DNA of 64,000 nucleotides from Nanobdellota archaeon (lineage in GTDB: Archaea; Nanobdellota; Nanobdellia; Parvarchaeales; Parvarchaeaceae): positions 7,847 through 71,846 of the forward strand of contig JAJZIX010000001.1 of assembly GCA_021810345.1 (NCBI GenBank). The letters run 5' to 3'. The notes under the pieces were generated by a model that had not been told where the DNA came from, made no database searches, and was given only the letters and a program-made list of their open reading frames with translations. This document shows, piece after piece, positions 30,639 to 62,368 of this stretch. The position numbers and the translations under genes were made by a program. Numbering within the stretch: the stretch's first letter is position 1; each line of letters begins with the position of its first letter.

Positions 30639-30659
30639 CTCTCTCCTTTTCTCTCTTAT

Positions 30660-46089: not shown

Positions 46090-46133
46090 TCCCTTATTTG
46101 GGATAATGCTATCATATATCCACACACACAAAT

Positions 46134-46265
46134 ATGTCTCATAACACAAAAAGCCAGTCCGCCCTTGAATATTTAATGACGTATGGCTGGGCCATTTTGG
46201 TCATTGTCATCGTCGCAGGAGTCTTATACAGTCTAGGAATATTCTCACCGGGCTCATCTTGCTAA
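46134..46265 (+). pseudogene. 43-codon pilin-family fragment holding only the class III signal peptide and TM helix (MSHNTKSQSALEYLMTYGWAILVIVIVAGVLYSLGIFSPGSSC*)
   Basis: Near-identical to the N-termini of the 30660 and 51420 pilins. It stops right after the conserved SLGIFSP motif. Located 45 nt downstream of tRNA-Pro. Confidence 0.5.
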
Positions 46266-47180: not shown

Positions 47181-47284
47181 AATATCTATAATTTATGCGG
47201 TTATTTAAATGTATACTTTTCACTAAATAGCATTATCTCCCCATCCCTTATTCGGGATATAGATGTCAAAGACAGACATAAGAA

Positions 47285-48496: not shown

Positions 48497-48609
48497 CTAC
48501 CTATAATCTAATTACCTGTTTAAAAGCATTATATCAGAAAATGCTTTTCTATACTAATAACTACTTAAGAGGAAAGGTTTTTATATAAGTTTCTATCAGT
48601 ATTTAGAAC

Positions 48610-49452: not shown

Positions 49453-51171
49453 TCCCATAGAATTCTTTATTTCATTGATGGCCAGTATTATACCAGCGTG
49501 TGCAAAACCCTGCGGGTAATTGCCAAGGAAATCCTCGTTTTCCACGTCCACATGCTCGCCCACTAACCCGCTTTTTTTGCCTATCTTTGCAAGGTTCTGG
49601 ATGATGCCGATCGCTTCATTGTTCCTACCCTCCAGAGCATATATCTGGCTTAGCCATCCAGAGCACAGGGAAAAGGGATGCTTGGCCTCCCCCATGCTAT
49701 CGTGCCTGTACCTGAATACGTAGCCTCCAAGCACCAGGTCCTTCTCTATTTTCTTGAGCGTGCTACTGAACAGAGGATTTGTCGCCTCAATAAACCCGAC
49801 TATTGGTATGTTAAGCAGGGCTGCATCAACCTGGTCAGTCCCGGGGTATTTGGAGAAATACCCATTTACGGTGCAGTTTTCCATTGTCCATTTTTTTATC
49901 TCATCAGCTTTATCATGCCATCTGTCGCGCATCCCCAACTCAATGGCTATTTTTCCTGCTTTGTCCAAAGTGGACCACATCATCACCTTAGAAAATGTGA
50001 ATTCCCTTTTTTCACTCTCTTCCCACAATCCGGCGTCGCTCAGTTTCCAGTTCTTTGAGACCCAGTCTGCACAGTATTCAACAGCCCATATCGATTCAGA
50101 CAAAAATGCCTTGTCTTTTGTTTCGCTGTAGTAAGTGTAAAGTGCATTGATAAAGAAACCTTCAACGTCAAGCTGCACCTGTTTGTATGCCGAGTTTCCT
50201 ACTCTTACAGGCTTGGAGCCGTTGAATCCACTGAGCCAGTCTATTGTTCTTTCAGGCGTTGGCGATGAGCCATCCAGTTCGTAGACCGGCTGGCTGAACG
50301 GTTTTCCGGAGAAATCCATTATTCTCATTAGAAACTGGATTATTTTCTTGCCCTCCTTCGGGAGGCCGGCTCTTATCAGCGCTTGCGACATTATGCATGA
50401 ATCCCTTACCCATATGAAGCGGTAGTCCCAGTTCCTGCTTTCTCCAATGGCCTCCGGCAGTGAAGTTGTAGGGGCGGAGACAGGCGCTCCCGACGGCGCA
50501 AAAAATAGACCCAAAATAGCCGATATGGATGAGGAATAGATCTTTGAGAGGCTGTTTAGGCCCTCTCCCGGCAGATTGCTGCTTTCCCACAAAGATTTGG
50601 GCAGGAGGTGCTCCCAATATTTTATCGACCTCTCCTGGCCTTCTTTTGGATATGAAAAGATTATCTCTTTCTCACTGAACAGCCCTTTAGAAACATCCTG
50701 CGAGTATAGAAGGTAAATATACCCCTTTCCCGGTTTGATTAAAATAGAGCTTCCATTGATTTTTGGCTTTAGCCCGAATGTTTTCACTTCTATGCCTTCT
50801 GCAACGCCTGGAAGTGTGAATTTTATACCATCTTTTTTAACCTCTGCATTTAGCTTTGATCTGCCATAGTCAAAAGTTGGAGAAAGACTTATCTCAAGAT
50901 CAATGCTGCTTTCTACCTCCCGTATCAGCGCACTTTGACCAAAAGGCATGAAGTCTGTGATCTTTGCCGTCCCCTTTATGGTCTCAAAAGTTGTCTCCAG
51001 TATGTTTGGTGCGGTATACCTCTGGGAGATTTTTGCTTCGTCCTGAATCTTAATGTCGAAAGAGCCCCCTTTCTCCTCATCCAGAAGCTTTGAGAATATG
51101 GGGGAGCTATCAAACCTTGGCATCGTGCACCAGACTACCTCACCTGAAAGTGATATTAATGCTCCGCTCAT
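49420..51171 (-). CDS. glycoside hydrolase family 15 (glucoamylase/trehalase-like)
   Basis: WDYRFIWVRDSCIMSQALIRAG and NYPQGFAHAGIILAINE are GH15 signature regions. Start placed at MSGALISLSGEVVW. The tracker ORF extends to 51246. Confidence 0.75.
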   Translation of the reverse strand: MSGALISLSGEVVWCTMPRFDSSPIFSKLLDEEKGGSFDIKIQDEAKISQRYTAPNILETTFETIKGTAKITDFMPFGQSALIREVESSIDLEISLSPTFDYGRSKLNAEVKKDGIKFTLPGVAEGIEVKTFGLKPKINGSSILIKPGKGYIYLLYSQDVSKGLFSEKEIIFSYPKEGQERSIKYWEHLLPKSLWESSNLPGEGLNSLSKIYSSSISAILGLFFAPSGAPVSAPTTSLPEAIGESRNWDYRFIWVRDSCIMSQALIRAGLPKEGKKIIQFLMRIMDFSGKPFSQPVYELDGSSPTPERTIDWLSGFNGSKPVRVGNSAYKQVQLDVEGFFINALYTYYSETKDKAFLSESIWAVEYCADWVSKNWKLSDAGLWEESEKREFTFSKVMMWSTLDKAGKIAIELGMRDRWHDKADEIKKWTMENCTVNGYFSKYPGTDQVDAALLNIPIVGFIEATNPLFSSTLKKIEKDLVLGGYVFRYRHDSMGEAKHPFSLCSGWLSQIYALEGRNNEAIGIIQNLAKIGKKSGLVGEHVDVENEDFLGNYPQGFAHAGIILAINEIKNSMGLKQLGSKDAK

Positions 51172-51289
51172 CTGATTACTTATAAATGACAGGTCCTTCA
51201 AGCGCATGATTACCCTTATAATATAATGCTTTATATTGGTTTTCATGCACTGAAAAGTTAATATTGGTGTGGATCTAAAAAGCAGTGTT

Positions 51290-51372
51290 GCAGGGGTAGC
51301 GAAGCGGTCAAACGCGTAAGGCTTAGGACCTTATGGCTCAGGCCTTCGAGGGTTCAAATCCCTCCTCCTGCA
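51290..51372 (+). tRNA. tRNA-Leu (anticodon TAG), class II
   Basis: Same scaffold as the tRNA at 26620 but with a canonical D-stem (GCG/CGC) and loop CTTAGGA. Acceptor GCAGGGG/CTCCTGC. Confidence 0.8.
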
Positions 51373-51384
51373 TTTTGGTTCAAT

Positions 51385-51399
51385 AAAAACTATTTATTC
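51385..51399 (+). promoter_or_regulatory. conserved BRE/TATA-like element (AAAAACTATTTATTC) upstream of the pilin gene
   Basis: Homologous to the elements at 30624 and 26716. Confidence 0.35.
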
Positions 51400-51419
51400 A
51401 TTCTCTTTACCTCTATTAT

Positions 51420-52556
51420 ATGAGTCTCCCACGAAGATCCCAATCGGCATTGGAATACATGATGACGTATGGCTGGGCCATACTGGTAATCGTCATCGTC
51501 GCAGCAGTCCTGTATTCCTTAGGTATCTTCTCTCCTGCATCGTCTTTATCTCTTACAGTAACAGGATTCTCAGGTTTTGTAGGTACTCAGGCCGACTGCA
51601 CTCCATCAGGTGTATTGGTCCTATCACTCAACGATGCGCTCGGAAATCCTGTTTTCATAAAATATGCAAATTCAACATACAATGGCAAAACCTTCTCATC
51701 AAACGTTTCTGAGACTATACTCCCAGACTCTTCCGGTAAGATACTTATACTTAACGGCTGCGTCAACTCATCAAATGTTCATTTTTCATCCACAGTGACG
51801 CTGGAATACACAGAGCCCGGCCAACCCCTGCCTGGGCCTTATATAAGTACAGGTTATATCACAGGCACTACTTCCTCATTCGTACAGAATACAGTCTCAG
51901 AGTTCATTGTAAATCAAAGTCAAATATACATACCAAATTCAACTACTACTTATAATATGTGGCAGGGTGGGCCTTATACCTTGTCATCTTGGGTGAATTT
52001 GACATCTGATACTGCATCATGTCAGCATTATCCTTGTGTAGCTCTTATCCAGGTTGAATTTGGCTGCACATCCGGCGTACAAGACTTCGCGGCAAATTCA
52101 AGTGGTTTTTGGACAAATGAATTAGAGTGGAATGTCACTCACACCTCGTGTACATCCGGTCAGACATCTCCATCAATTTTCGTTCCTTTTGATAAATGGG
52201 CACTTATAACTGGAATCTTCGGGTATAATAGTTCATCCTCTAGCTATTATGTTGAAATCTGTGTGGATGCAAAATGTGATGAAAATCCTTATACTCTTGA
52301 TCATCCCGGTTACCAAGGTACAGGCGCAACGGCAATCGGTGCATACCAGTTATCTGGCAGAATAGCAAATGTCCAACTCTATAGTTTTGCACTTTCCCAT
52401 AATCAGATTCAGACAATGTATGATGAAGGATACGCAGGTATACCCCCAACTACCAATGGATTAGTGGCATGGTATCCTTTGGATGGCAACGCGAATGATT
52501 ATTCTGGTAATAATAACAATGGCGTTGCAACAAATGTTCAGTGGGTATCACCTTGA
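51420..52556 (+). CDS. type IV pilin-like/adhesin protein, class III signal peptide plus LamG-like C-terminus (paralog of 30660)
   Basis: MSLPRRSQSALEYMMTYGWAILVIVIVAAVLYSLGIFSPASS. The C-terminus LVAWYPLDGNANDYSGNNNNGVATNVQWVSP is about 85% identical at DNA level to the 3' end of 30660..31772. The middle is divergent. Confidence 0.7.
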   Translation: MSLPRRSQSALEYMMTYGWAILVIVIVAAVLYSLGIFSPASSLSLTVTGFSGFVGTQADCTPSGVLVLSLNDALGNPVFIKYANSTYNGKTFSSNVSETILPDSSGKILILNGCVNSSNVHFSSTVTLEYTEPGQPLPGPYISTGYITGTTSSFVQNTVSEFIVNQSQIYIPNSTTTYNMWQGGPYTLSSWVNLTSDTASCQHYPCVALIQVEFGCTSGVQDFAANSSGFWTNELEWNVTHTSCTSGQTSPSIFVPFDKWALITGIFGYNSSSSSYYVEICVDAKCDENPYTLDHPGYQGTGATAIGAYQLSGRIANVQLYSFALSHNQIQTMYDEGYAGIPPTTNGLVAWYPLDGNANDYSGNNNNGVATNVQWVSP

Positions 52557-52628
52557 TTCCTTTTTGGCCCAAAGGTTAAATATGCATGCCATTAAAGTAT
52601 ATAAATATCAGGAGAGGAATAGAAGTCT

Positions 52629-52919
52629 ATGGTTATAAAAGGAAAGGGTTCGCACAGGCGTTCCAGGAAAAGATTAAGTAGAGATGAAGGCAAAAAGGGG
52701 TATATAGACATAAAAAAGACCCTTCAGGTCTTCCAGCCAGGCGACAAGGTCGTGATAGACCCGGATTCATCGATACAGAGAAATATACCGCACAGGAAGT
52801 TCTTTGGTCTGCCGGGAGTAGTCTTGTTTAAAAAGGGAAAAACCTATACTATAGAAGTGAAGAAAGGAGGAGCAAGCAAGAGGATTGATTTGCTCCCAGT
52901 GCACATTAAGAGGCTTTGA
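52629..52919 (+). CDS. rpl21e: 50S ribosomal protein L21e
   Basis: GSHRRSRKRLS...FQPGDKVVIDPDSSIQRNIPHRKFFGLPGVV...LLPVHIKRL matches L21e. Confidence 0.8.
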   Translation: MVIKGKGSHRRSRKRLSRDEGKKGYIDIKKTLQVFQPGDKVVIDPDSSIQRNIPHRKFFGLPGVVLFKKGKTYTIEVKKGGASKRIDLLPVHIKRL

Positions 52920-52923
52920 GCAT

Positions 52924-53247
52924 ATGGAATACGACGTAATTGATGAGAAGATAATAAGTGAAACCGAAGTAAAGGAGAAATACATGGATGCTATAGACGA
53001 CAGCAACGAGATGGGCAAAAAGCTTGTGGCGCACATAAAGAAAAACATAAAAATAGACGATTTCAAGGCAACTTTCGACGAGCTTGCTGCTCTTAATCTT
53101 GACATAAGGGATGATTATCTGATGATGCTTGTGGATGTTTCTCCAACCTCTGTGGACCAGGTCAGAGCCATTCTTTCGCCTCTCAAATCCAACATCAAAG
53201 AAGAGGATACAAGGAAAATCTTGGCAGTACTAAAAAAGCATTTATAA
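52924..53247 (+). CDS. rpoF: RNA polymerase subunit F (Rpb4 homolog), probable
   Basis: Conserved archaeal gene order L21e - RpoF - DUF655. Acidic helical 107-aa protein. Call by position. Confidence 0.55.
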   Translation: MEYDVIDEKIISETEVKEKYMDAIDDSNEMGKKLVAHIKKNIKIDDFKATFDELAALNLDIRDDYLMMLVDVSPTSVDQVRAILSPLKSNIKEEDTRKILAVLKKHL

Positions 53248-53271
53248 TGCTGAAATTCCTTAGTTTTTTGT

Positions 53272-53802
53272 ATGCCACGAGACGAATATGCTTATATTTT
53301 GGAGTACCTGCCGTACGGCATGGCAGATTCAAAGGAGAGAAGGCCGTCTGCGATTATACTGACGGATTCGCTGGGCCTGCTGCTGGTCGTGCTTAAGAAG
53401 GACGTGAAAGTGGAGCCCGGTCAGAAGGTCTACATAGGTGAGGATAAGAGGGAAGAAGTGCACCACATAGTAGAGCGCATTTCACCGGACAAACTCAGCG
53501 CAGCAGGCATGCAGTTGCTTACCGATAAACTTCACCAAATAATACTCGAAAATGAGAAGAAATACGTGGACTTGATAAACAAGCTGGGCCCAATAAACGT
53601 AAGGATACATGCGATCAGCCTTATACCTGGAATGGGTAAGAAGACCAGCCAAAAGCTTCTTTTAGAGAGGAGCATAAAGCCATTCGAGTCATACAACGAC
53701 ATAAAAGAGAGAGCAGGGCTCTCAACCACCGTTGATAAAGCAATAGAAGACAGGATAATGGAAGAATTGTATGGCAAGGACAAGTATAGGATATTCACTT
53801 AA
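53272..53802 (+). CDS. DUF655/COG1491 predicted RNA-binding protein (OB fold plus HhH)
   Basis: N-terminus EYAYILEYLPYG. HhH region RIHAISLIPGMGKKTSQKLLLERSIKPFESYNDIKERAG matches the family pattern (LLPGIGKK...ERxKKPFESFEDI). Confidence 0.65.
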   Translation: MPRDEYAYILEYLPYGMADSKERRPSAIILTDSLGLLLVVLKKDVKVEPGQKVYIGEDKREEVHHIVERISPDKLSAAGMQLLTDKLHQIILENEKKYVDLINKLGPINVRIHAISLIPGMGKKTSQKLLLERSIKPFESYNDIKERAGLSTTVDKAIEDRIMEELYGKDKYRIFT

Positions 53803-53918
53803 GGGGTTGTAGTCTAATCCGGCAGAATAGGCGGCTCCAGTTTATCTGGAAACATGACTCTAAACGGGGGATGATTAGAAGAAACCGCTTGATCCAGGTT
53901 CAAATCCTGGCAACCCCA
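53803..53918 (+). tRNA. tRNA-Trp (anticodon CCA) with an intron of about 43 nt after position 37
   Basis: Acceptor GGGGTTG/CAACCCC. Anticodon stem GGCGG/CCGCT. Loop CTCCAG|intron|A. T-arm CCAGG-TTCAAAT-CCTGG. The intron TTTATCTGGAAACATGACTCTAAACGGGGGATGATTAGAAGAA contains a GATGA (C-box-like) motif. Confidence 0.75.
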
Positions 53919-54029
53919 CAGATTATATGGGGCATAGTATATCTCTCTCTTAATTTCACTCCTGCCCCAGTATATACACAAAAGTATATACCTTCAATAA
54001 TTCATGCCCAAATCATCTAAAATCAATAT

Positions 54030-54176
54030 CTAATTGGTACAGGTTTCATCTGGTATCAGCTCTACCACCATGAAATCGATTGGGTTAAGTCCAGCTGCCT
54101 TTACTTTTATTGTTACTTGTCCTGGACCGGCTTTCGGCTTGTCTGTCTCCTTGAGGTTTAAGTTATCTATCCATTC
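54030..54176 (-). pseudogene. N-terminal fragment of a zinc-type alcohol dehydrogenase/quinone oxidoreductase (MDR family), no start codon
   Basis: Minus-strand translation EWIDNLNLKETDKPKAGPGQVTIKVKAAGLNPIDFMVVELIPDETCTN* carries the PGPGEVLIKVKAAGLNPVD MDR N-terminal motif. In-frame stops lie immediately upstream. Confidence 0.45.
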
Positions 54177-54437
54177 TTACTAAGAATCCACGCTTTCATA
54201 TAGTATTATTTTACTAGCGATATAAACGCTTTCTTAAGTTTATATTAGTTTAAAACTTCAAATCGCAGTAAACTAGAAAGACGACTCTTACTGACTGAGT
54301 ATGATTAAAGTTATATAGGTTTATAATATATAAACGAAAATCTTTATATTACGTAATAGCTGATAAAAAAAGTAGGGTTTTAGCTTCAATTAAAGCTAAT
54401 AACAAGTGAAAGTAGTTTTTTTTATCAAGTAGAATAT

Positions 54438-55001
54438 ATGGACAACCTAAAATATACAAAAATCGAAAGGGCAGATAACAAAAAGGTTGCAGTATTTGAT
54501 TGTGATGACACTCTCTTTTTTACAGGAGATTCACTTAGATTAGCTTCAAAAGAAGTATTTAACCGAGATTTAACAAGGCTTCAGATTAAAAAATTACCGC
54601 CAAATATAAGAGCTAATCTATTTATCACTGCTAGTAAAAAATATCATACAGCGTACAAACCAAATAAATTGACTATAGATAAATGTAAGATACTTAAATC
54701 AAAAGGATATGATATCATAGTGTTAACTACTCGTTGGAATACTCTCAGAAAATATACCTTAAAAATCTTATCTAATAACAATATACCTTTCAAAAAACTG
54801 ATTTTGGATAGGAATGGGAGTACAGACGGAGAAAAATTTAAAATACACTACATAAAATCTTTGTTATCAAAATACAAGCAAGTCATTTTTTTTGATGACT
54901 CAATAGAAATTATGCGTAAAGTTGAAAGGTTAAATTCATTAAAAAGGGTGTCACTATATTTAGTTAGCCCAACGCGCATACGTCTATATAGAGCAGGATA
55001 A
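54438..55001 (+). CDS. HAD-superfamily phosphatase-like protein
   Basis: VAVFDCDDTLFF is the DxDxT motif I. Lys-rich, AT-rich gene at the left end of the island. Confidence 0.55.
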   Translation: MDNLKYTKIERADNKKVAVFDCDDTLFFTGDSLRLASKEVFNRDLTRLQIKKLPPNIRANLFITASKKYHTAYKPNKLTIDKCKILKSKGYDIIVLTTRWNTLRKYTLKILSNNNIPFKKLILDRNGSTDGEKFKIHYIKSLLSKYKQVIFFDDSIEIMRKVERLNSLKRVSLYLVSPTRIRLYRAG

Positions 55002-55004
55002 TCT

Positions 55005-56081
55005 TTAAATCGCTGCTCTTTTATAAAAATTTTCGAGATTAATACAATTTTCTTTTATGTTGAAGTGTTCCTTGATTACTTCCCGTGCAGAAATACCGAA
55101 TTTTGAGTAATCTGATAAAACATCTCTTATCCCTTGAGATAGCGCTGAGCTACTCTTAGCTTCTACAGTTACACCCCCACCAAACTTTAATGCTTCTTTC
55201 ATTCCTCCTTGATCTGTTGTAACAACTCCCAAACCACAAGCCATCGCTTCTAACATGCTGGTAAGGACACCTTCTCTCGAATAGGATGGGAATACTCCTA
55301 TCTTAGAACGTGAGTAAATTCTTGGAAGGTCTTTAAAGTTGACATAACCTAAAAAATCAATATTGACTTTTAATTTTTTTGACAAAGCATAAAGTCTTTC
55401 CTTCTCTGGACCCTCTCCAGCAATGGCAAGTTTTAGGTCACTCCCTCGTATTGCTTTAATAAGGTAATCTAGCCCCTTTATTTTTATTAGCCTACCTACG
55501 AATACCAAATCATAAATTTTTTTTGTTTTTACCGGTTTAAAAAAATCTGTTGTTATCCCATTGTGTATAACCTTCTTTATTTTATAAGCAAATTCGGGAA
55601 AAAGAGACTGCCATTTAGTTTTGACCTCGGAGCTGACAGATAATATCTTCCTAGCCCTTCCAAGCCCTATTACAGCTCGTTCTACTCTATTATCCGGGTA
55701 ACCATGTAAATGCAGAATAATGTTCTTATTATCAAGTACGATGTGGTCATTAGAGTAGTGGGATATTATAACATCTGGGTTTATTTTTTTTATAGTCTCT
55801 ACCGAGTCGAGTTGCATCATAAGAGATTCAGAGTCCCAAGCTTCCAGTGGAATTCTTGCACCCGCGTGGTAAACCCGGTCCAAAGACTTGATCCTGGAAA
55901 AGATTACTTTAACATTGGCATCTTTTAGTAATTTTAAATATTCAGAAGGTTTTGACGGTTTTGTGGTAATCAAAGTAACGTCATTTCCCAATTTGGACAA
56001 TTCCGCCATCTGATACACAGGTACAATCTCTCCACCCCCTATATAGTAAGATATCCTAGGCTGAACTACAAGTATTTTCAT
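55005..56081 (-). CDS. glycosyltransferase family 4 (GT-B, retaining)
   Basis: C-terminal REGVLTSMLEAMACGLGVVTTDQGG resembles the GT4 EX7E-region motif (EGFGLVLLEAMACGLPVV). Confidence 0.75.
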   Translation of the reverse strand: MKILVVQPRISYYIGGGEIVPVYQMAELSKLGNDVTLITTKPSKPSEYLKLLKDANVKVIFSRIKSLDRVYHAGARIPLEAWDSESLMMQLDSVETIKKINPDVIISHYSNDHIVLDNKNIILHLHGYPDNRVERAVIGLGRARKILSVSSEVKTKWQSLFPEFAYKIKKVIHNGITTDFFKPVKTKKIYDLVFVGRLIKIKGLDYLIKAIRGSDLKLAIAGEGPEKERLYALSKKLKVNIDFLGYVNFKDLPRIYSRSKIGVFPSYSREGVLTSMLEAMACGLGVVTTDQGGMKEALKFGGGVTVEAKSSSALSQGIRDVLSDYSKFGISAREVIKEHFNIKENCINLENFYKRAAI

Positions 56082-56135
56082 ATCTAAATAATACTCATTT
56101 AATGTATAAATTTACTTACTTCCTAATAATCCGAT

Positions 56136-57290
56136 ATGGAAACCGGGGAAATTATTCCTACAGAGGGAAATGGTGTCGTTGGCATTATACTAATAAATGG
56201 GAAGCTCTTAATTGATCTTAGAAACATGAGCAATCAGATGCACCTATGGGAGTTTCCGGGTGGAGGAATAGAGAAGGGAGAAACCGCAGCATCCACATTG
56301 AAAAGAGAGATAGAGGAAGAAGTTGGAATAAAAGTTAAAAAGATGGAATGGTTGGGTGTAAAAAACCAAGCTGTCCACTGGGGCCATACTGAGTTTGAGC
56401 ATTATTTTTTAATTACCGAGATAGAGGGTCAACCTTTTCCTAATTCCCCAAGAGAAGTTAAAGAAGTCAGGTGGGTATACCCAGAAGAACTAAAAGAGAT
56501 ACTAAATTTAGGGTGGAGAGTTACAGACGGCATGTTCTTATTAACCCGTAAGTTAGACAAATATAAAGAAGTATATTCCTCGCTTAAAGATAGAGATCAA
56601 AGACCTGAATTAGGTTTTGAATATTTTGCGTATTCTGAAACCGTTAAAACAGGGCGGAAAAAAGAAAAACTGAATCAGCAACAGGTTTTTCATGAGGAAG
56701 AAACTGAGCTTAAAAAAATACTTTCAAAAAGAAAAGGTCGATTTTTAGAGATTGGGCCTGGATATGGGCGGTTAACCGAAATAATACTGAAGAAAGCCAA
56801 AACCATAGATTTATTGGAAGTTAACCCAGATTTTAGGGCACTACTTATTAAGAGATTTGGTCATAGGGTGAATTTTCTAGAGGGTGTTGCAGAGAAATTT
56901 AGAGCCGATAAAAAATACAATACGATTCTATGCGCCGAAACAATCGAGAATATAAAAGATATTTATGCCTTTGTTGCAAATGTAAGATTCGCTCTTTCGA
57001 AAGGGGGAGTTTTTATCTTGACGTTGGATAATACAGAATCTTCATCGAAGATAAACAGAGATAATTTCAGAAAATTATATGGAGCAAGTACTACGGGGCA
57101 TTACAGAAAAATTACTTTAAAATCTCTATCTAACTTACTCAGAGACTCGGGGTTTAAATTTAGTATTAACGAAATAGGTCATAAATATGTACCGTTGCCA
57201 GCGAGACAAAGGAAACTACTGATTCCAAAACCGAAAAACAAAAAAGATACTTATGTGTTCTTGATCACTTGTACCGTCTATGAAGAATAA
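56136..57290 (+). CDS. bifunctional Nudix hydrolase / SAM-dependent methyltransferase fusion
   Basis: Perfect Nudix box GGGIEKGETAASTLKREIEEEVGI (GX5EX7REUXEEXGU) at residues ~40-65. Class I MTase motif LEIGPGYGRLTEIIL at about residue 205. Confidence 0.65.
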   Translation: METGEIIPTEGNGVVGIILINGKLLIDLRNMSNQMHLWEFPGGGIEKGETAASTLKREIEEEVGIKVKKMEWLGVKNQAVHWGHTEFEHYFLITEIEGQPFPNSPREVKEVRWVYPEELKEILNLGWRVTDGMFLLTRKLDKYKEVYSSLKDRDQRPELGFEYFAYSETVKTGRKKEKLNQQQVFHEEETELKKILSKRKGRFLEIGPGYGRLTEIILKKAKTIDLLEVNPDFRALLIKRFGHRVNFLEGVAEKFRADKKYNTILCAETIENIKDIYAFVANVRFALSKGGVFILTLDNTESSSKINRDNFRKLYGASTTGHYRKITLKSLSNLLRDSGFKFSINEIGHKYVPLPARQRKLLIPKPKNKKDTYVFLITCTVYEE

Positions 57291-58194
57291 ATTGAGTGTA
57301 ATAATAAGTACTTATAAGCACGGCGCGAAACTTTTTTCATTATTAGATTACCTTAATAATCTAAATTTAGACGAAATAGTGGTTATAGATGATCATAGTA
57401 ATAGAGGGGGAGAGATAATAAACAAGCTTAAGAGTTTAAATATAAAATCAAGACTTATAGTAACTAAAAAACCGTACGGTCCGTGGGCAACTAAAAGCAT
57501 TGGAATAAAGGTCGCTAAAAATGATTATATCTTGCATCTGGATGGTGATTGTGAACCTGTAGACAGCGATATAATATCAAACCATTTAAAATGGTTAAAA
57601 AAAGGTTACATATTTGTTTTTGGTAATATACTATTTAAAGAGAAAGACATTTTAACAAATGCATTCTATGTAAGATACTGTCTTTCATCAAGTAAATATT
57701 TTCTAGAGGAACCTAAAGAATTCGATTCCCAAAATATAATAGCCATAACTGGAAATAATTTTTCATTGAATAGAAAAATGCTCTATACTAAAGATATCCC
57801 GAACTTAGGTTTGTATGGTGGGGATGACCTGTATTTTACTACATTAAATATGAGAAAAACGGGTAAAAAGGCGATTTTTGACCCAACTATATTTGTAAAA
57901 CATAAACATGTTTTATCATTACGCAAGCTGATTAATAAGTACTACACTTACGCAGTCGGGAGCGGGGTAAATAGGCGGTTTTTCGGAAAGTTAGGTGACT
58001 ATTACACTGAACCACTCATGAAGATATACTTTTCAAGAATACCCATAGCACTTAATAAATTTGGTTTATATCCGGCTCTTCTGTTTTTTATTTTGTATCC
58101 ATTATACACGGTCGTAACCATACCTGGTTTCATACGCGGATTTACTTTAAAGATAAATAAAATAAAAATAGATTACAAAGAGATAAAAGTTTGA
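57280..58194 (+). CDS. glycosyltransferase family 2
   Basis: LSVIISTYKHG and HLDGDCEP (DxD) motifs. C-terminal hydrophobic segment. Confidence 0.7.
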   Translation: MKNKLSVIISTYKHGAKLFSLLDYLNNLNLDEIVVIDDHSNRGGEIINKLKSLNIKSRLIVTKKPYGPWATKSIGIKVAKNDYILHLDGDCEPVDSDIISNHLKWLKKGYIFVFGNILFKEKDILTNAFYVRYCLSSSKYFLEEPKEFDSQNIIAITGNNFSLNRKMLYTKDIPNLGLYGGDDLYFTTLNMRKTGKKAIFDPTIFVKHKHVLSLRKLINKYYTYAVGSGVNRRFFGKLGDYYTEPLMKIYFSRIPIALNKFGLYPALLFFILYPLYTVVTIPGFIRGFTLKINKIKIDYKEIKV

Positions 58195-58235
58195 TACCTT
58201 AAAGGTTTATATAATACCTGCTATCATACATAAAT

Positions 58236-59099
58236 ATGCCCGGCTCGTATTACGTACGAACAAAGCGAGGGGATGTCCACATAAAAGACGACATAAACAT
58301 AGAAAATGTCTTCCTGCGAATACCTGGCGTAGTATCTGTAAACCATTCTGATACCTTAGAGGACGTATTAGATAGGTATTCTGATGTTTCTGGTTTAGAT
58401 AAAGAGGATTTATCGTACAAAATGACGCCAAAGGATCGTATAGCTCTTGCTGAAATTATTCTAGAATTTTGCGGCGAAACTGAAGGAGTTTATACTATGG
58501 AAGGCGCGGCCATAATAAAAGATAATAAATGTGTTATTCTACAAGGGGACAGCTTAGCGGGTAAGAGCAGAACTGCATATGAGCTTAAGAAATCCTATTC
58601 TATAGGCGGAGATGATAGCGTTCTGCTTAGAATTTTCGGCCAAAAATTAGAATTCGTGGGGGGAAATAGACACTCTGCCCCCAAATTTTGGCATGATAAC
58701 AAAGAATATACTGACTTCGGTGAAAATGCCGTAGCCGACTCAGAGGTGGTTGCTGTAATAAAGTTGAAAACAGTTTATACTCCCAATTCGGATAAATATA
58801 TATTACAGAAATTATCGCCAGATAACCTGCAATTCCTACTATGGTCATGGGTTTCGTCTAAGAGTAGGAGTGTTGGTAGCTATTTGAAGGATATGGAATA
58901 TCCTTTACCTTCCTTAGATACAAATGAATTATCTAAAAAAAGGTTAAATTTTTGTAAGGAAGCGAGCTACGTTCCGTTCTATTTTTATGAAGGCGGGGTC
59001 GAAAACTTATCATCAATAATCTCAATGTTAATAAAAGATGCGGATCACATAAAGGAAGCGGCATATGCCGTAAATTATAAAGATTCTCGGTTAAAGTAA
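58236..59099 (+). CDS. HprK-like P-loop kinase domain protein
   Basis: GAAIIKDNKCVILQGDSLAGKSRTAYELKKSYSIGGDDSVLL parallels the HPr kinase C-terminal domain (HGvLVdv.GvGVLItGdSGvGKSEtALELI.rGhrLVADD.V.I). Confidence 0.5.
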   Translation: MPGSYYVRTKRGDVHIKDDINIENVFLRIPGVVSVNHSDTLEDVLDRYSDVSGLDKEDLSYKMTPKDRIALAEIILEFCGETEGVYTMEGAAIIKDNKCVILQGDSLAGKSRTAYELKKSYSIGGDDSVLLRIFGQKLEFVGGNRHSAPKFWHDNKEYTDFGENAVADSEVVAVIKLKTVYTPNSDKYILQKLSPDNLQFLLWSWVSSKSRSVGSYLKDMEYPLPSLDTNELSKKRLNFCKEASYVPFYFYEGGVENLSSIISMLIKDADHIKEAAYAVNYKDSRLK

Positions 59100-59996
59100 T
59101 TTCTCAATTTCATTGCATATAAACTTCATGCTCCCTTTTATCTGTACTATTGGGATACTTTTTGCGATCTTTCTAGCCAAGCCGATTCGCTTAACAGATA
59201 AATCTATAGTATCTAGTGAACTTAACGGTCTTTTGAACCCGTCTATATAACAACTGTAAAGCCCCCGTATTTCTATACTTAAAAGCTCATACATATGAAA
59301 GATGGATTTTTTACTATTTCCCCAAATTATTTTAACATTATTACCCGTGATCTGTGGGTATACAAATGCAGCTATCCTTGGTTTTTCTTCCATACTATCT
59401 TGATTTAATCCTTTCATATCCTCGTAAATCTTGTAGTGCTCCTTTATGTAAGGCGAAATTTCTTCCATAATTTTGATTTTTCCGACTATATTAGCATTTC
59501 TATCGATAGTTGCTTGACCGTCGGATACAAAATTGAATTTATTATTTTTTACGAGGCTTATGGCGGTACTGCTTTTTCCAGTATCTTTCCAACCAAACAG
59601 GAAAATCGCTTTTCCCTCTCTGCTCACAGCGCTACCGTGTATGCTATACATCATTGATTCTTGTTTTTTGCGCTCGAGTAGGTGTTTTGCTATCGAAATT
59701 ATGTCTTTTGGTTTATTGCCAGTATACTCTGATTTTGGATAGTTTTCCTTCAAGTGAAATTTATTAGATCGATTAACAAAAACATAAGGATATTTTTTAT
59801 TTACATTGTTAATAGAAGGAGAAGTTACAATTTTTTTTATTAATTTATCATTTAGAGTTTTTAATACCAGTTTTCTGTCACCAATTATGTTTATACCAAC
59901 ACCACAACTCTCTAAAGCCAAACTGGCTTTATCTTTAGTATATAAGGCTTTTGTTACGGCCTTTACATCTTTTTCAAAACTAGCATACCAATTCAT
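59091..59996 (-). CDS. HprK-like P-loop kinase domain protein (paralog, convergent with 58236)
   Basis: IHGSAVSREGKAIFLFGWKDTGKSSTAISLVKNNKFNFVSDGQATI has the same HprK-like Walker A plus downstream acidic motif. Confidence 0.5.
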   Translation of the reverse strand: MNWYASFEKDVKAVTKALYTKDKASLALESCGVGINIIGDRKLVLKTLNDKLIKKIVTSPSINNVNKKYPYVFVNRSNKFHLKENYPKSEYTGNKPKDIISIAKHLLERKKQESMMYSIHGSAVSREGKAIFLFGWKDTGKSSTAISLVKNNKFNFVSDGQATIDRNANIVGKIKIMEEISPYIKEHYKIYEDMKGLNQDSMEEKPRIAAFVYPQITGNNVKIIWGNSKKSIFHMYELLSIEIRGLYSCYIDGFKRPLSSLDTIDLSVKRIGLARKIAKSIPIVQIKGSMKFICNEIEKLL

Positions 59997-60008
59997 ACCA
60001 TGTTAAAA

Positions 60009-60082
60009 TGGGCCCGACGGGATTTGAACCCGCAACACTCTGGTTAAGAGCCAGATGCTCTACCGTGTTGAGCTACGAGCCC
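60009..60082 (-). tRNA. tRNA-Lys (anticodon CTT)
   Basis: Reverse complement folds with acceptor GGGCTCG/CGGGCCC, D-stem GCTC/GAGC, anticodon stem TCTGG/CCAGA, loop CTCTTAA and T-arm GCGGG-TTCAAAT-CCCGT. Confidence 0.75.
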
Positions 60083-60162
60083 ACTATTTACTTATGCTAT
60101 TATGAATAACTCTTGCTTTATTTAAGCTATTAGTTCGGTATATTGGCTGGGGTAAAAATAGA

Positions 60163-60696
60163 TTAACTACGGGTATATCTTTTGATTTCTCCCTTGTTGA
60201 TATAGTAAAATTCAATTTTTTTGGGTTCTATACTGCTCAATATATAATCTATGTTTTCTTTTTTGTCTTCCAAAGCTACCAAATTTGAGTATCTACCCAA
60301 TAATTTGTTGAATTCATCAAGCTTCCACTTTTCATCACTGGTAGAGTGATCCTTTGGCAGTATCACATCCTTATACTTTATTCCAACGGAAGATAACATT
60401 CTCTCGGTAATCAACCTGTGCTCTTCCCCTTTAGCACTCAGTATTATTATGTCGTATCCTGAGGACTGCATAGTCTTGATGTAATTTATTACGGCAGTGT
60501 TTGGCACGGCTTTATCCCAATATTTGTCATGAGCGAGGTAGTACACCTTCCTTTTTGTTTCCTTGTCTTTTTTCTTGACTTCTTCCAAATCCATCTGCTT
60601 CCCTAATATTTCCAGAGACGCGGCCCTTATGCAGTCATTTATTAAAAAAAGCGTATCATCAAAATCAGACACTACCGCAGAAAGTTTAGTTTTCAC
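60163..60696 (-). CDS. HAD-superfamily phosphatase-like protein (distant paralog of 54438)
   Basis: AVVSDFDDTLF is the DxDxT motif. About 177 aa. Similar domain layout to the protein at 54438. Confidence 0.55.
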   Translation of the reverse strand: MKTKLSAVVSDFDDTLFLINDCIRAASLEILGKQMDLEEVKKKDKETKRKVYYLAHDKYWDKAVPNTAVINYIKTMQSSGYDIIILSAKGEEHRLITERMLSSVGIKYKDVILPKDHSTSDEKWKLDEFNKLLGRYSNLVALEDKKENIDYILSSIEPKKIEFYYINKGEIKRYTRS

Positions 60697-60748
60697 AGTT
60701 CTCTAAGGTCAGAATTATTTAAATACTTTGCCGCCTTTACTTCATGAT

Positions 60749-60821
60749 GGGCCTATGGTCTAGTGGTTATGACGTCTGCCTTACACGCAGAAAGCCGGGA
60801 GTTCGAACCTCCCTGGGCCCA
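60749..60821 (+). tRNA. tRNA-Val (anticodon TAC)
   Basis: Acceptor GGGCCTA/TGGGCCC. Anticodon stem TCTGC/GCAGA. Loop CTTACAC. Otherwise near-identical to the tRNA-Val(GAC) at 37786. Confidence 0.8.
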
Positions 60822-60898
60822 ATCCCCCCTCAAACAAATTTCAGTCTGCGAGAGGACAGAAAAAGTATTTATTCTGATTGAATCATTAAAATATAATA

Positions 60899-62368
60899 AT
60901 GACTATGGAAGAGTATAAAAACCTCGAAGAAGAGCTTCTATCAACCATAAACAAAGTAAAAGAGAATGATGGATTTGGGGATTATATATACATTGGGAAG
61001 GAAAATATAAAAAAATTAGAGAGTATACTAATGCCGAGGTTCTCCAAAGAGGGAAACTCATTCAAAATAGCATTTAAATGCGATGCAGACTACGAATCTG
61101 CAATAGATCTTTATAGAAGGATAGACTTCGAGGCGGACGAGCTGAATGAATCTCTCAAAGGTATATACGGGGATACTAATCTTAGCATTTCATTAACCTC
61201 AAAAAGATCCGGAAGCATTTCAAAGATGATATCTATAGGAACCAACGGAAGCGATCCACTTTTTAGAATTCAGTACAACAGCATACTGGACGCGGAGGAG
61301 GGCAGCCTTGAGTTGATTTTCAGCAAAAAGGTGACTAAAAACATTGCATCTTGTAAAAATATATTCAAAAAGATCTGGGAGGGAATTATACTAGACAACG
61401 AAAGAGTCTCCAATATTTTGGATAAGTACAGCAAGGAATATGATCTGGATGATTATCACAAAAATGGTAGGGATACTCCCATACAGGAGCAGTCTAATCC
61501 ATATCAAAACAGTAACCTCTTAGAAACAAAGGTCGCCAAGCACAATCTCTGGGATAGAATAGGAGGGTATACGGAAATAAAGAAAACTGTGGAGACGGAG
61601 CTTATATATCCACTGAAGAATCGAACGTTTTACAAGGACTTGATGGAGAAAACGATGGGCATCCAAAACCAGCCAGAGATAGGACCAATACTGTTTTACG
61701 GGCCGCCCGGAACCGGCAAAACTATGATGGCGAATGCAATCGCCGGAAGAGCGGGCCTTGAGTTTTCATACATAAGCTTGTCTAATATCATCTCCAGATA
61801 CATGGGAGAAGGCCCGGAAAAGCTAAGAGCCGCCATGGATTCAGCAATCGCGGCAAAGGACAAAGATACGTTGCTATTCATAGATGAAATAGACTCGATA
61901 GGAAGCAGAAACTCAAAAAGCTCTTCAGCAGCTGATCTGGATGACAGAAGGCTTGTGAATACCTTTCTCACCGAACTAGACGAAATCGCGGAAACTCGGG
62001 GCTCTTCGGTAATAGTGATCGGAGCGACCAACAGCGAGGAAGCGCTGGATAAGGCAATGCTCTCTAGATTCAAAGATGAGATATACTTCCCGCTGCCATC
62101 GAAGGATGACAGGGAGAAAATACTACCGCTTTACATAAAGCACCTGGACAAGGTAGACATAAGCAAACTTGCTGCAGCAACGGATGGCTTTTCGTGTAGA
62201 GACATAAAAAACATGTCTGAGCGCGCCATAAAGATATTCCTCAAGGATTACGTTGAGAATGGAAGAGAGTCCACATTACCGGATATCAACGACTACCTTA
62301 AATCTTCGAGGCAAACCGCAGAAAAGTACAAGATTGGCGGCTCTAACTACACCTCCGCCTACGCCTAA
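60899..62368 (+). CDS. AAA+ ATPase (single AAA domain) with an unassigned N-terminal region of about 240 aa
   Basis: Walker A ILFYGPPGTGKTM. Walker B LLFIDEIDS. Second region of homology DKAMLSRFKDEIYFPLP. Confidence 0.75.
   Translation: MTMEEYKNLEEELLSTINKVKENDGFGDYIYIGKENIKKLESILMPRFSKEGNSFKIAFKCDADYESAIDLYRRIDFEADELNESLKGIYGDTNLSISLTSKRSGSISKMISIGTNGSDPLFRIQYNSILDAEEGSLELIFSKKVTKNIASCKNIFKKIWEGIILDNERVSNILDKYSKEYDLDDYHKNGRDTPIQEQSNPYQNSNLLETKVAKHNLWDRIGGYTEIKKTVETELIYPLKNRTFYKDLMEKTMGIQNQPEIGPILFYGPPGTGKTMMANAIAGRAGLEFSYISLSNIISRYMGEGPEKLRAAMDSAIAAKDKDTLLFIDEIDSIGSRNSKSSSAADLDDRRLVNTFLTELDEIAETRGSSVIVIGATNSEEALDKAMLSRFKDEIYFPLPSKDDREKILPLYIKHLDKVDISKLAAATDGFSCRDIKNMSERAIKIFLKDYVENGRESTLPDINDYLKSSRQTAEKYKIGGSNYTSAYA

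Follow-up and report, generated by a model that had tools for sequence, protein, structure and literature searches.

Flexible (replacement-type) cell-surface glycosylation islands, such as O-antigen and capsule loci and the low-GC 'metagenomic islands' of Haloquadratum, SAR11 and Prochlorococcus, pass between genomes through homologous recombination within flanking sequence that is conserved. Integrase-mediated elements that target tRNA genes include archaeal SSV-type and pTN3-like elements, as well as bacterial genomic and pathogenicity islands. We compared with both of these a six-gene cassette located at positions 54310-60002 of a 64-kb window, i.e., the whole stretch of DNA analysed, from a Parvarchaeota/Parvarchaeales (DPANN) archaeon recovered from acid-mine-drainage metagenomes; short metagenomic contigs served as the other comparison material. 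The cassette resembles flexible glycosylation islands in its low GC content, its glycosyltransferase cargo, its lack of mobility genes and its conserved flanks, which include a tRNA gene; furthermore, its site is full, remnant or empty across related species, and its identity to homologs is decoupled from that of the core genome. It differs from them in being fixed within the window species rather than variable, in having a DPANN archaeon as host, and in being one fixed six-gene set, found at other loci elsewhere, rather than a hypervariable assortment. Like the tRNA-targeting elements, it adjoins a tRNA 3' end, stands out in composition and is missing at the equivalent site of a relative, but it has no integrase, att duplication or replication genes, and its junction lies outside the tRNA. 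In our judgement, it is quite probable that the cassette was acquired horizontally without an integrase and is part of a wider conserved module, with a glycoconjugate role being the most likely.

Composition and gene content

The earlier note had described an AT-rich island at 53803-60821. Sliding-window analysis bore out the discontinuity in GC content, with values of 0.30-0.38 in 1-kb windows at 54-61 kb and 0.41-0.49 elsewhere. The segment 54310-60002 had a GC content of 0.340, as compared with 0.445 ± 0.014 for 967 same-size windows elsewhere, the minimum of which was 0.410 (z = -7.6). The extent first given to the AT-rich tract was, however, too wide, with tRNA-Lys lying inside that span and HAD2 further out. 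Codon usage likewise set the cassette genes apart from the host core, as the earlier note had anticipated: their GC3 values were 0.24-0.35 versus 0.509 ± 0.058 for the other ORFs of the window, and they accounted for six of the seven lowest values among 64 ranked ORFs. The RSCU of the cassette correlated with that of the host core at r = 0.20, and with those of the L025 cassette, L025 flanks and L026 flanks at r = 0.92, 0.86 and 0.84, respectively. In relatives, the GC contents of cassette and host were near equal (0.340/0.318, 0.349/0.360 and 0.400/0.411), as opposed to 0.343/0.441 in the window organism. The composition and codon usage of the cassette are thus those of a lower-GC lineage (~32-36% GC, like L025 and L026), not those of its 44% GC host.

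All of the genes and tRNAs listed in that note were found using Pfam, Rfam and ARAGORN. The cassette itself comprises 5,693 bp, and the proteins that it encodes have confirmed folds and intact catalytic motifs; all are soluble except GT2. HAD1 (54438..55001, + strand) is a type-III HAD phosphatase with an intact DxDxT motif, akin to PNKP-phosphatase, to class B/C acid phosphatases and to LNS2; its likeness to nucleic-acid 3'-phosphatases is as strong as that to lipid or sugar phosphatases. It is followed by a soluble GT-B glycosyltransferase of family GT4 (55005..56081, - strand; Pfam Glycos_transf_1, E = 2e-33) and by a fusion of Nudix and class-I SAM methyltransferase domains (56136..57290, + strand; Pfam NUDIX, E = 5e-21, and Methyltransf_23, E = 3e-14). 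The Nudix domain has an intact Nudix box, with MutT, CTP pyrophosphohydrolase and RppH as its PDB relatives, and is MutT-like more than clearly of the NDP-sugar type. The GT2 glycosyltransferase (57280..58194, + strand; Pfam Glycos_transf_2, E = 5e-14) overlaps the fusion gene by 11 nt; it has a DGD motif, and its C terminus carries a hydrophobic anchor (residues 254-285). Among solved structures, TarP and PglI come closest to it, and its PHROGs matches are GtrB-like.

The two remaining genes encode paralogous P-loop proteins. K287 (287 aa; 58236..59099, + strand), an HprK-fold protein with a GDSLAGKS P-loop, had no Pfam match and is 23% identical to K301 (E = 5e-9). K301 (301 aa; 59091..59996, - strand) gave a weak Hpr_kinase_C match only and, on a structure model of moderate quality (pLDDT 68), is predicted to be an HprK/PEPCK-fold member of an uncharacterised family. 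When compared with HPr kinase/phosphorylase and HprK-related kinases (TIGR00679, TIGR04352, TIGR04355; lasso-peptide kinases), K301 has a different N-terminal region, scores far below the cut-offs of the curated models (21.7 bits vs 240; Pfam, 20.4 vs 33.3) and neighbours GT4, Nudix and GT2 genes rather than PTS or RiPP genes.

Insertion site

The boundaries of the cassette were defined by alignment to L028, in which the site is empty of the cassette and holds an intact 329-aa Zn-dependent alcohol dehydrogenase (ADH). Window positions 60003-60822 align to L028 2888-2068, and 54052-54309 to L028 3144-2884, ending 2 nt from the 3' end of the L028 tRNA-Lys. By these alignments, the foreign DNA is a 5.7-kb insertion with clean edges, lying 11 nt 3' of tRNA-Lys(CUU) (60008..60083, - strand; ARAGORN, Rfam), a native gene, the 3' flank of which is the insertion site. 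The K301 start codon lies 11 nt from this tRNA. The decayed dehydrogenase fragment that had been noticed earlier is indeed present: tblastn with the intact L028 ADH identified a Zn-ADH/MDR stub of codons 1-50 with a frameshift (54051..54199, - strand). The adjoining spacer (54200..54309) aligns to the L028 ADH/tRNA-Lys intergenic spacer, and would once have joined the two genes before the insertion split them. The ADH stub probably arrived with the cassette, so that the foreign tract including the stub and spacer is probably 54052-60002. A 5-bp direct repeat, TTTAA, is found at both cassette junctions; such a repeat may be due to chance in AT-rich DNA.

The left edge has a separate history. 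The tRNA-Trp(CCA) gene (53803..53919, + strand; Rfam, 44.6 bits), missed by ARAGORN in bacterial mode, was detected by Rfam and by intron-aware ARAGORN (-i), with a 43-nt intron (37/43). It is a native gene at the margin of a rearranged block, and is conserved in L017, the closest named relative, which has no cassette beside it. We rejected tRNA-Trp as the integration boundary: the insertion is bounded by the region upstream of the ADH gene on one side and by the tRNA-Lys 3' end on the other, and it was a separate rearrangement that brought the tRNA-Trp block up against the truncated ADH. Positioned 9-10 nt 3' of a tRNA, here tRNA-Trp, is a 75-bp element (53928..54002, + strand) with two predicted hairpins and no covariation, which also occurs 3' of tRNA-Ile(GAU) in L012 and of tRNA-Lys in S3 (L010, L031-L036), was not found in viral contigs, and marks rearrangement junctions. 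On the right, HAD2 (60163..60696, - strand), a HAD1 paralog, and tRNA-Val(UAC) (60748..60822, + strand; ARAGORN, Rfam) were rejected as parts of the island, given that the tRNA-Lys/HAD2/tRNA-Val/AAA block is conserved in relatives without the cassette. HAD2 has a normal GC3 (0.44) and lies between tRNA-Lys and tRNA-Val in both L028 and S3 (59-62% aa identity), and tRNA-Val is native and conserved in L028, L010 and S3. Accordingly, of the three flanking tRNAs first proposed, only tRNA-Lys forms an edge of the island, and the HAD paralogs do not bracket it, HAD2 being native and outside the insertion.

Evidence for horizontal acquisition

Horizontal transfer of the AT-rich tract, as had been proposed, is strongly supported by codon usage, by incongruence between cassette and core identities, and by the existence of full, remnant and empty states at one site. 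Against Ca. Acidifodinimicrobium (L024/L029), identity reaches 66-78% for the proteins of the cassette, whereas it is 42-46% for core proteins next to it and 39-46% when SMC, KsgA and a small neighbouring protein are all counted. In a second species, S3, a decayed remnant of the cassette occupies the same site and is 93% identical, with flanks at 65-73%; the Nudix-methyltransferase gene is the sole one kept intact (90% aa and 92.9% nt identity to the window), with deletions elsewhere within the cassette. Outside S3, the best cassette matches are ~73% identical at the nucleotide level. The 5' region of ADH is similarly close between the window and S3 (94.5% nt; 39/40 aa), as compared with 48-59% aa for core proteins, and the identity drops to 60-80% just past tRNA-Lys. 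S3 and L028 form a pair of sister species (AAA 80%, HAD2 83% and ADH 92% aa identity), to which the window organism is an outgroup (47-62% aa). In the window species, the cassette was present on every contig among the exact matches listed, from several samples, and is fixed.

Could the tract be a native, vertically inherited operon, AT-rich for functional reasons (low expression; Lys/Asn/Ile-rich proteins), with the empty L028 site and the short S3 version reflecting deletions? We consider this extremely unlikely. Deletion between the TTTAA repeats in L028, which could be precise, is possible in principle in place of an insertion here; moreover, S3 shows clear deletions within the cassette, distant relatives keep its internal gene order, and a rather high AT content is seen in native HAD2 and the AAA N-terminal part as well. 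Nevertheless, insertion is favoured over an L028 deletion because of the composition and phylogenetic incongruence: GC3 and RSCU are far from the host core and match low-GC lineages, cassette GC tracks host GC in other hosts, identities of the cassette far exceed those of adjacent core genes, and the locus differs in every lineage.

Route of transfer

An integrase-type integrative element or provirus remnant that targeted a tRNA gene and has since lost its integrase and att sites appears improbable, although several observations fit it. The cassette abuts a tRNA 3' end, here that of tRNA-Lys; in Ca. Acidifodinimicrobium, tRNA-Thr lies about 23-24 nt upstream of HAD1; a fragment of the TnpB N-terminus, read by eye, is found close to the variant left flank of L012; and DPANN viruses from these habitats encode glycosyltransferases (PMC12647753). 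Against this, 54310-60002 contains no integrase, transposase or viral gene, and no integrase was found among the ORFs. Att-like repeats, a duplicated tRNA 3' segment and terminal repeats were searched for at the cassette and not found, and three viral scans together with phage and plasmid collections yielded no relatives. The insert consists of six metabolic genes alone, and it meets the flanking DNA at a junction 11 nt away from the tRNA, not within it. Given that no integrase, att repeat or viral link was found, recombination is the probable means of transfer, with tRNA-Lys(CUU) as its likely anchor. One crossover would have fallen within this tRNA gene, which is near-identical between the partners, while the opposite side would have been joined illegitimately or through a repeat.

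A recurrent gene module

The same internal gene order is found in L024/L029, L025 and L026/L027, each time at a different locus, which marks the set as a functional module that moves, not as an operon kept from an ancestor. The earlier note had set against a horizontal origin both an even GC profile and a gene order conserved in distant relatives; the order is indeed conserved, but GC content is discontinuous and the loci differ. Orthologs of K287 occur in L025 and L026 but not in L024 or L029. More distant homologs of the K proteins (25-36% identical) adjoin GT4, Nudix and GT2 genes, with or without a HAD or methyltransferase-fold domain, in L030, L037/38, L039/40, L041 and L042; the L039/40 contig carries a bacterial 23S rRNA, and bacterial core genes accompany L042. 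The GT4s adjoining these distant K genes are 35-37% identical to the cassette GT4 over their full length, compared with a half-length match for a control GT4, which suggests that one GT4 subfamily co-occurs with the K301/K287 family. Across these neighbourhoods, the constant part of the module is GT4 together with Nudix and an HprK-fold P-loop protein, whereas GT2, HAD, the methyltransferase-fold domain and a nucleotide kinase are there in some cases and not in others. The module recurs in several DPANN lineages and in bacteria, and probably represents an uncharacterised conserved pathway.

Predicted function

Judged from its domains and neighbourhoods, the cassette most likely functions in nucleotide-sugar-dependent synthesis or modification of a (phospho)glycoconjugate. 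The soluble GT4 and membrane-anchored GT2 would build a glycan and the methyltransferase would decorate it, with the P-loop kinases, type-III HAD phosphatase and MutT-like Nudix domain processing phosphorylated or nucleotide-linked intermediates. No nucleotidyltransferase, flippase or oligosaccharyltransferase is present in the cassette. Like archaeal N-glycosylation (Agl) clusters (AglJ and AglD, GT2; AglP, methyltransferase), the cassette encodes a membrane-anchored GT2, a GT4 and a SAM methyltransferase, and it gave weak AglJ and Agl16 matches with scores far under the cut-offs. Unlike them, it has no AglB, flippase or sugar-nucleotide synthesis genes, and nothing in the Agl clusters corresponds to its kinases, Nudix or HAD.

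Alternatively, the product might be a small soluble glycoside, i.e., a compatible solute or thiol-like cofactor, whereby a kinase phosphorylates an acceptor, GT4 glycosylates it, HAD dephosphorylates it, and the methyltransferase and GT2 elaborate it, in a logic modelled on the MshA/MshA2, sucrose-phosphate synthase/phosphatase and GpgS/GpgP pathways. The co-occurrence of kinase, GT4 and phosphatase and the solubility of every protein but GT2 accord with this, as does the similarity of GT4 to BshA, MshA, the sucrose-phosphate-synthase domain and GlcNAc-phosphatidylglycerol synthase, although the NCBIfam scores are all far below equivalog cut-offs. This product is rather unlikely, however, as the HAD is of type III (PNKP, acid-phosphatase or lipin-like) and not a capped sugar-phosphate phosphatase, and the anchored GT2 most resembles TarP, PglI and GtrB, enzymes whose acceptors are polymers or linked to lipids. 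When compared with HAD-plus-glycosyltransferase pathways (Bcs3 capsule polymerase, MshA/MshA2, sucrose-phosphate synthase/phosphatase), the cassette has separate proteins and adds HprK-fold kinases and the Nudix-methyltransferase fusion; no sequence-level orthology with these pathways was found.

A role in repair, decoration or defence through the modification of nucleotides or of the ends of nucleic acids, with glycosyltransferases adding sugars, is highly improbable. The PNKP-like phosphatase, P-loop kinases, RppH/MutT-like Nudix domain and methyltransferase do echo Pnkp/Hen1 RNA repair. A PADLOC defence search, however, returned generic Nudix and methyltransferase matches only, the cassette contains no ligase, nuclease or known defence architecture, the predicted K301 fold is HprK/PEPCK and not PNK, and GT4 and GT2, the most conserved partners of the K proteins, resemble envelope-glycan enzymes. 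Finally, the sequon-rich pilins encoded nearby, which the earlier note had put forward as what the product might decorate, include a pilin-like protein of 378 aa with nine N-X-S/T sequons.

An AT-Rich Insert Lies 3' of tRNA-Lys

In 1-kb windows, GC content was 0.30-0.38 at 54-61 kb, as compared with 0.41-0.49 elsewhere, and the discontinuity claimed in an earlier note on this DNA is thus both real and large. The six-gene cassette at 54310-60002 has a GC content of 0.340, i.e., z = -7.6 relative to 967 same-size windows elsewhere (0.445 +/- 0.014; minimum 0.410). The ORF list and Pfam matches agreed with the gene content described in that note: HAD1 (54438-55001, +), GT4 (55005-56081, -), a Nudix and class-I methyltransferase fusion (Nudix-MT; 56136-57290, +), GT2 (57280-58194, +), K287 (287 aa; 58236-59099, +) and K301 (301 aa; 59091-59996, -). 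The last two, members of an HprK-fold P-loop protein family (the K family), are 23% identical (E 5e-9). The start codon of K301 is 11 nt past tRNA-Lys(CUU) (60008-60083, -), beyond which come HAD2 (60163-60696, -; 30% identical to HAD1), tRNA-Val(UAC) (60748-60822, +) and an AAA ATPase gene. On the other side, the decayed dehydrogenase fragment noticed previously was indeed present, consisting of the first 50 codons, with a frameshift, of a Zn-ADH/MDR dehydrogenase (ADH; 54051-54199, -).

The window contains eight tRNA genes. Among these, tRNA-Trp(CCA) (53803-53919) was missed by ARAGORN in bacterial mode, but was found by Rfam and typed by intron-aware ARAGORN. Its 43-nt intron (53839-53881) marks the genome as archaeal, and is kept with few changes in L017, the closest named relative. 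Euryarchaeal tRNA-Trp introns are much longer and have a C/D-box guide.

Codon usage in the cassette also departs from that of the host core. GC3 was 0.24-0.35 in the six cassette genes, as against 0.509 +/- 0.058 in other ORFs, and these genes account for six of the seven lowest values among 64 ORFs. Cassette RSCU correlated poorly with that of the host core (r = 0.20), but well with that of the homologous cassette in the low-GC relative L025 (r = 0.92) and with the flanking genes of L025 (r = 0.86) and of a further low-GC relative, L026 (r = 0.84). The host core itself gave r values of 0.88-0.91 with L017 and with the flanks of the Ca. Acidifodinimicrobium loci L024/L029. GC contents of cassette and rest of locus were 0.340 and 0.318 in L025, 0.349 and 0.360 in L026, 0.400 and 0.411 in L024, and 0.343 and 0.441 in the window. 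A further AT-rich stretch (60899-61460; GC 0.33-0.38) encodes the N-terminal region of the native AAA ATPase, a region outside the AAA domain that is poorly conserved among relatives. As a result, a two-change-point fit to composition alone stretches the low-GC segment to 53920-61460, thereby blurring the true insertion boundary.

That boundary was revealed by L028, a related species with an empty site, in which the order is AAA, tRNA-Val, HAD2, tRNA-Lys and then, directly, an intact 329-aa ADH. Window positions 60003-60822 align to L028 2888-2068 (74%) and positions 54052-54309 to L028 3144-2884 (81%), which together define 54310-60002 (5,693 bp) as cleanly inserted DNA, a few bases away from the 3' end of tRNA-Lys. 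The junction reads GGGCCCA-GTTTTAATCACAC in L028; in the window, it reads GGGCCCA-TTTTAAC-ATGG... on the tRNA side and ...TATAAC-TTTAATCATAC on the far side, placing a TTTAA repeat on both sides of the insert. Since the insertion lies 3' of tRNA-Lys, HAD2 and tRNA-Val are native, whereas the earlier note had counted HAD2 into the island and set tRNA-Val at its edge. HAD2 is kept at the same place in two relatives without the full cassette (59-62% aa) and has a normal GC3 (0.44).

The proposal that tRNA-Trp bounds the island was likewise wrong, given that its surroundings differ in L017 and that L012, a strain-level variant of the window species, has a different left flank. In L017, tRNA-Trp converges on a tRNA-Leu(UAG) located ~105 bp further on, followed by GH15. 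A pilin-L21e-RpoF-DUF655-tRNA-Trp block (window 47275-53919; L017 5977-12717) is inverted or translocated between the two, and tRNA genes sit at breakpoints of genome rearrangements in the window lineage.

The Cassette Was Acquired Horizontally and Its Site Exists in Three States

Codon usage, GC content relative to the host, incongruent identities and the states of the site in other species all bear out the claim of a horizontally acquired island. Cassette proteins are 66-78% identical to their counterparts in L024/L029, as compared with 39-46% for the SMC, KsgA and small neighbouring protein adjacent to the latter. Ca. Acidifodinimicrobium, one of the Parvarchaeota, is a genus found in acid mine drainage, and its GC content is 41-42% (PMC7779479); one cassette homolog is labelled 'Candidatus Acidifodinimicrobium sp.'. 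Conservation of gene order in relatives, a point raised in the earlier note, was found for the internal order of the cassette (44-79% aa), but at unrelated loci, i.e., in L024/L029 (without K287), L025 and L026/L027 (without HAD1).

The ADH/tRNA-Lys site holds the full cassette in the window, a remnant in a third species, S3, and nothing in L028. Six independent contigs (L031-L036) represent S3, and the proteins encoded on them bear the name 'Candidatus Parvarchaeota archaeon'. The contigs contain an intact ADH, Nudix-MT, 37 and 49 bp of GT2, a 75-bp element and tRNA-Lys, an arrangement that represents what is left of a decayed cassette at this site. With AAA 80%, HAD2 83% and ADH 92% identical (aa), S3 and L028 are sister species, for which the window organism is the outgroup (47-62%). 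Nudix-MT is nonetheless 90% identical between the window and S3 at the aa level (92.9% nt) and the ADH 5' region 94.5% identical (nt), as opposed to 65-73% in the flanks; identity collapses directly beyond tRNA-Lys. Given the kinship of S3 and L028 together with these high identities, we conclude that the common ancestor of S3 and L028 had an empty site, and that transfer of the cassette between S3 and the window lineage took place long after the two had diverged. Of 40 residues compared in the ADH stub, 39 are the same in S3; the stub most likely hitch-hiked with the cassette, this near-identity making decay in situ less likely than co-transfer. The foreign tract, including the stub, would then span 54052-60002.

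Nudix-MT is the sole cassette gene still intact in S3 (384 aa in all six contigs, e.g., L033 7812-8966). It differs from the window copy at 29 synonymous and 39 non-synonymous codons, and the S3 copy may therefore function on its own or experience relaxed selection.

Exact-match look-ups placed the locus, at 99.8-99.9% identity, in many MAGs and contigs of one study (GCA_0273709xx, ERZ27237xxx). Among named genomes, 'Candidatus Parvarchaeota archaeon FK_Sedi_A_Bin.293' (L017) came nearest, its DUF655 protein being 85% identical (aa). Among the matches listed, the only window-species variants were the different left flank of L012 and a mosaic contig, L010. The site resembles a recombination-exchanged flexible glycosylation island in having conserved flanks with alternative contents and an identity decoupled from that of the flanking core (92.9-94.5% vs. 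65-73% nt). It differs from one in that content was not polymorphic within the population, the same cassette being present in every window-species contig among the matches listed.

Transfer Probably Involved Recombination in a tRNA Gene

In common with integrase-type tRNA-targeted islands, the cassette is tRNA-adjacent (11 nt), anomalous in composition (z = -7.6) and absent in a relative (L028). In contrast to such islands, it lacks both an integrase and an att duplication. No tyrosine or serine recombinase or transposase was found in the six ORFs (Pfam, NCBIfam, PHROGs) or in the ORF list for 53.7-60.9 kb, and a repeat search revealed neither a duplicated tRNA 3' part nor a terminal repeat, but only the 5-bp TTTAA at the junctions. 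A viral origin was rejected: viral contigs, scanned twice with proteins and once with a DNA pattern, yielded no relatives, PHROGs were negative for the K proteins, and tblastn found no cassette relative in phage and plasmid collections. A sigma-70 promoter/terminator scan, based on a model that does not apply to archaea, gave results at shuffle level.

The most economical mechanism would be recombination in which one crossover fell within the tRNA gene, which is nearly invariant, and the other side of the insert was joined illegitimately or through repeats. In Ca. Acidifodinimicrobium, HAD1 starts about 23-24 nt past tRNA-Thr(GGU).

Predicted Functions of the Cassette Enzymes

The Nudix box (GX5EX7REUXEEXGU) of Nudix-MT is intact (GGIEKGETAASTLKREIEEEVGI), and the domain is MutT-like, scoring 75.6 bits against a threshold of 21.1 (PF00293). 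Polyprenyl-phosphate glycosyltransferases of the GtrB, DPMS or AglD type combine a GT-A domain bearing DxD with membrane helices at the C terminus; GT2 has a Pfam match, a DGD motif at residue 88 and a single C-terminal hydrophobic stretch (254-285), a membrane anchor that suggests a lipid-linked or surface product. It came nearest to TarP, PglI and GtrB, with GtrB-like PHROG matches (E 9e-8) and equivalog scores far below cut-off. The AF2 model of HAD1 (pLDDT 84.5) is that of a type-III HAD, combining motif I (DxDxT) and a minimal cap with a Rossmannoid core. It most closely resembles class B/C acid phosphatases, the phosphatase domains of Pnkp1 and T4 Pnkp, and LNS2/lipin.

Judging from domains, intact motifs, folds and conserved co-occurrence, we hypothesize that the cassette encodes a nucleotide-sugar-dependent pathway which makes or modifies a glycoconjugate via phosphorylated or nucleotide-linked intermediates. 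A small phospho-glycoside pathway seems an improbable alternative, and a role in nucleic-acid or nucleotide modification a very improbable one. The cassette differs from archaeal N-glycosylation (Agl) clusters in that neither the oligosaccharyltransferase AglB nor a flippase is encoded among its genes or in the immediate flanks (51-64 kb). A known anti-phage defence system was rejected, as the defence search with PADLOC matched no defined gene set and gave generic single-domain matches only, i.e., PDC-S07 (Nudix) and mad2 (methyltransferase).

K Proteins Belong to a Module Found in Archaea and Bacteria

The K family shares an HprK/PEPCK-type P-loop fold with Walker A with the HprK/P kinases (PF07475, TIGR00679), but K301 and K287 do not reach the curated score thresholds of that family. 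K301 scored 20.4 bits against a Pfam threshold of 33.3, and 21.7 against 240 for TIGR00679; K287 had no match at E <= 0.01. Neither HPr, whose Ser46 is the target of HprK/P kinases, nor any PTS gene appeared in the K neighbourhoods examined. K301 has an invariant core of HGSAVS...GWKxTGKS...VSDGQ. A profile search of 1.84 billion representatives identified 389 relatives of K301, 147 of them at E <= 1e-10 and almost all 260-310 aa in length. All ten relatives sampled bore no name apart from the label 'hypothetical protein'. Sequence searches of the PDB with K301 and GT4 gave nothing useful, and a word-indexed protein search based on an alignment of 42 family sequences recovered cassette orthologs only.

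We compared the neighbourhoods of distant K-family members, 25-36% identical (L043 being more distant). The orders were GT2-GT4-K-NUDIX in L037/38; NDK-GT2-GT2-GT4-K-HAD-NUDIX in L039/40, on a contig with a bacterial 23S rRNA; (BpsA_C-K fusion)-NUDIX-GT4-GT2-thymidylate-kinase-like in L041; NUDIX-NUDIX-GT2-NDK-like-GT4-K-methyltransferase in L042, which is bacterial (Pol III alpha, GatCAB); GT4-K in L030; and CTP synthase-K-NDP-sugar epimerase/dehydratase in L043. The module-linked GT4s matched the window GT4 along the full length (35-37% identity, E 1e-46 to 1e-66), as opposed to a control GT4 from outside the cassette, which matched the C-terminal half only (E 9e-16).

These co-occurrences raise the possibility, which we put forward tentatively and hold to be rather doubtful, that GT4, the HprK-fold P-loop protein and Nudix, with a variable GT2, type-III HAD, methyltransferase-fold domain or nucleotide kinase, constitute an undescribed pathway conserved across domains (several DPANN lineages and bacteria) and exchanged horizontally. 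K would then be a new HprK-fold kinase class acting on a sugar, polyprenol or protein acceptor, and the product a phosphorylated or methylated surface glycoconjugate, possibly built from scavenged nucleotides or lipid carriers. A literature search found no paper on the cassette or on an HprK-like/Nudix/GT cluster.

Islands of this kind are familiar in themselves; what adds interest here is a site history resolved into full, remnant and empty states, the lack of mobility machinery, and a cargo belonging to a conserved, uncharacterised enzyme module of both domains. Tiny genomes and dependence on a host characterize DPANN archaea, in which attachment to the host and resistance to viruses are prime candidate roles for surface glycoconjugates. 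The locus captures, at base-pair resolution, a trait moving between species without an integrase. With ~390 representative K sequences, without name or Pfam model, the enzyme set is compact, conserved and wholly uncharacterised, and the location of K beside a specific GT4 and Nudix in most archaeal and bacterial neighbourhoods examined makes it a defined biochemistry target, as well as a marker for gene flow among ultra-small symbionts.

Additional Features of the Locus

The ~75-bp element occurs at window 53928-54002, L012 3030-3104, L010 4205-4278 and in the S3 contigs (e.g., L033 9041-9114), and in no other locus examined. It lies 9-10 nt 3' of tRNA-Trp in the window, tRNA-Ile in L012 and tRNA-Lys in S3, while its far side adjoins a truncated gene each time (a GT2 fragment, or ADH cut at codon 50). 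Within it, a 36-nt core shows no differences between species that are ~70% identical in core DNA. Considered as a structured RNA, the element has two potential hairpins, TGGGGCA...TGCCCCA and the GTATATAC palindrome, but no compensatory changes were present across three copies. The element could be a recombination hot spot, a small RNA or what remains of the end of a mobile element; alternatively, a mechanism of recombination or mobility that has so far gone unrecognised could have left it as a footprint.

In L012 (GCA_027370195.1), an identical island is joined at window 53928 to another left flank (1-3030) containing eRF1, a short TnpB-like N-terminal fragment (MLTAYRFRLHPNEEQEEMF..., recognised by eye) and tRNA-Ile(GAU). 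Such a switch of flank implies that the 75-bp element was the point of a strain-level rearrangement or else of a misassembly. L010 (GCA_027371275.1) is 99.9% window-type up to window 57316 and thereafter S3-type (98.7% to L033), with the deletion junctions of S3 (L010 junction at about 4156-4290). Rather than just a shorter island, it is a mosaic of window-type and S3-type sequence, which arose by natural recombination between species or by chimeric assembly in the 93%-identical Nudix-MT region.

Four tRNAs (Leu-AAG, Gly-GCC, Pro-AGG and Leu-UAG) each have, within ~45-110 nt and in the same orientation, a downstream N-terminus resembling that of type-IV pilins, QSALEY(L/M)MTYGWAIL (window 26620-26893, 30436-31772, 46015-46265 and 51289-52556). 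Two of the four N-termini belong to full genes (383 and 378 aa); of the others, the first is a 43-aa stub and the second degenerate. The K301 and AAA genes start 11 and 76 nt past tRNAs. Taken together, these arrangements suggest tRNA-linked duplication of pilin gene heads or tRNA-promoter-driven transcription.

Finally, a second variable spot near the window lies between a MamF-like gene and AdoMet synthase, where an extra ORF without Pfam match varies among the same-species strains L001-L006. Located left of AdoMet synthase at locus coordinates of about 1760-4010 (near window 46.8-47.3 kb), this ORF is absent in L001 and L006, and encodes 457 aa in L002 and 673 aa in L003-L005.
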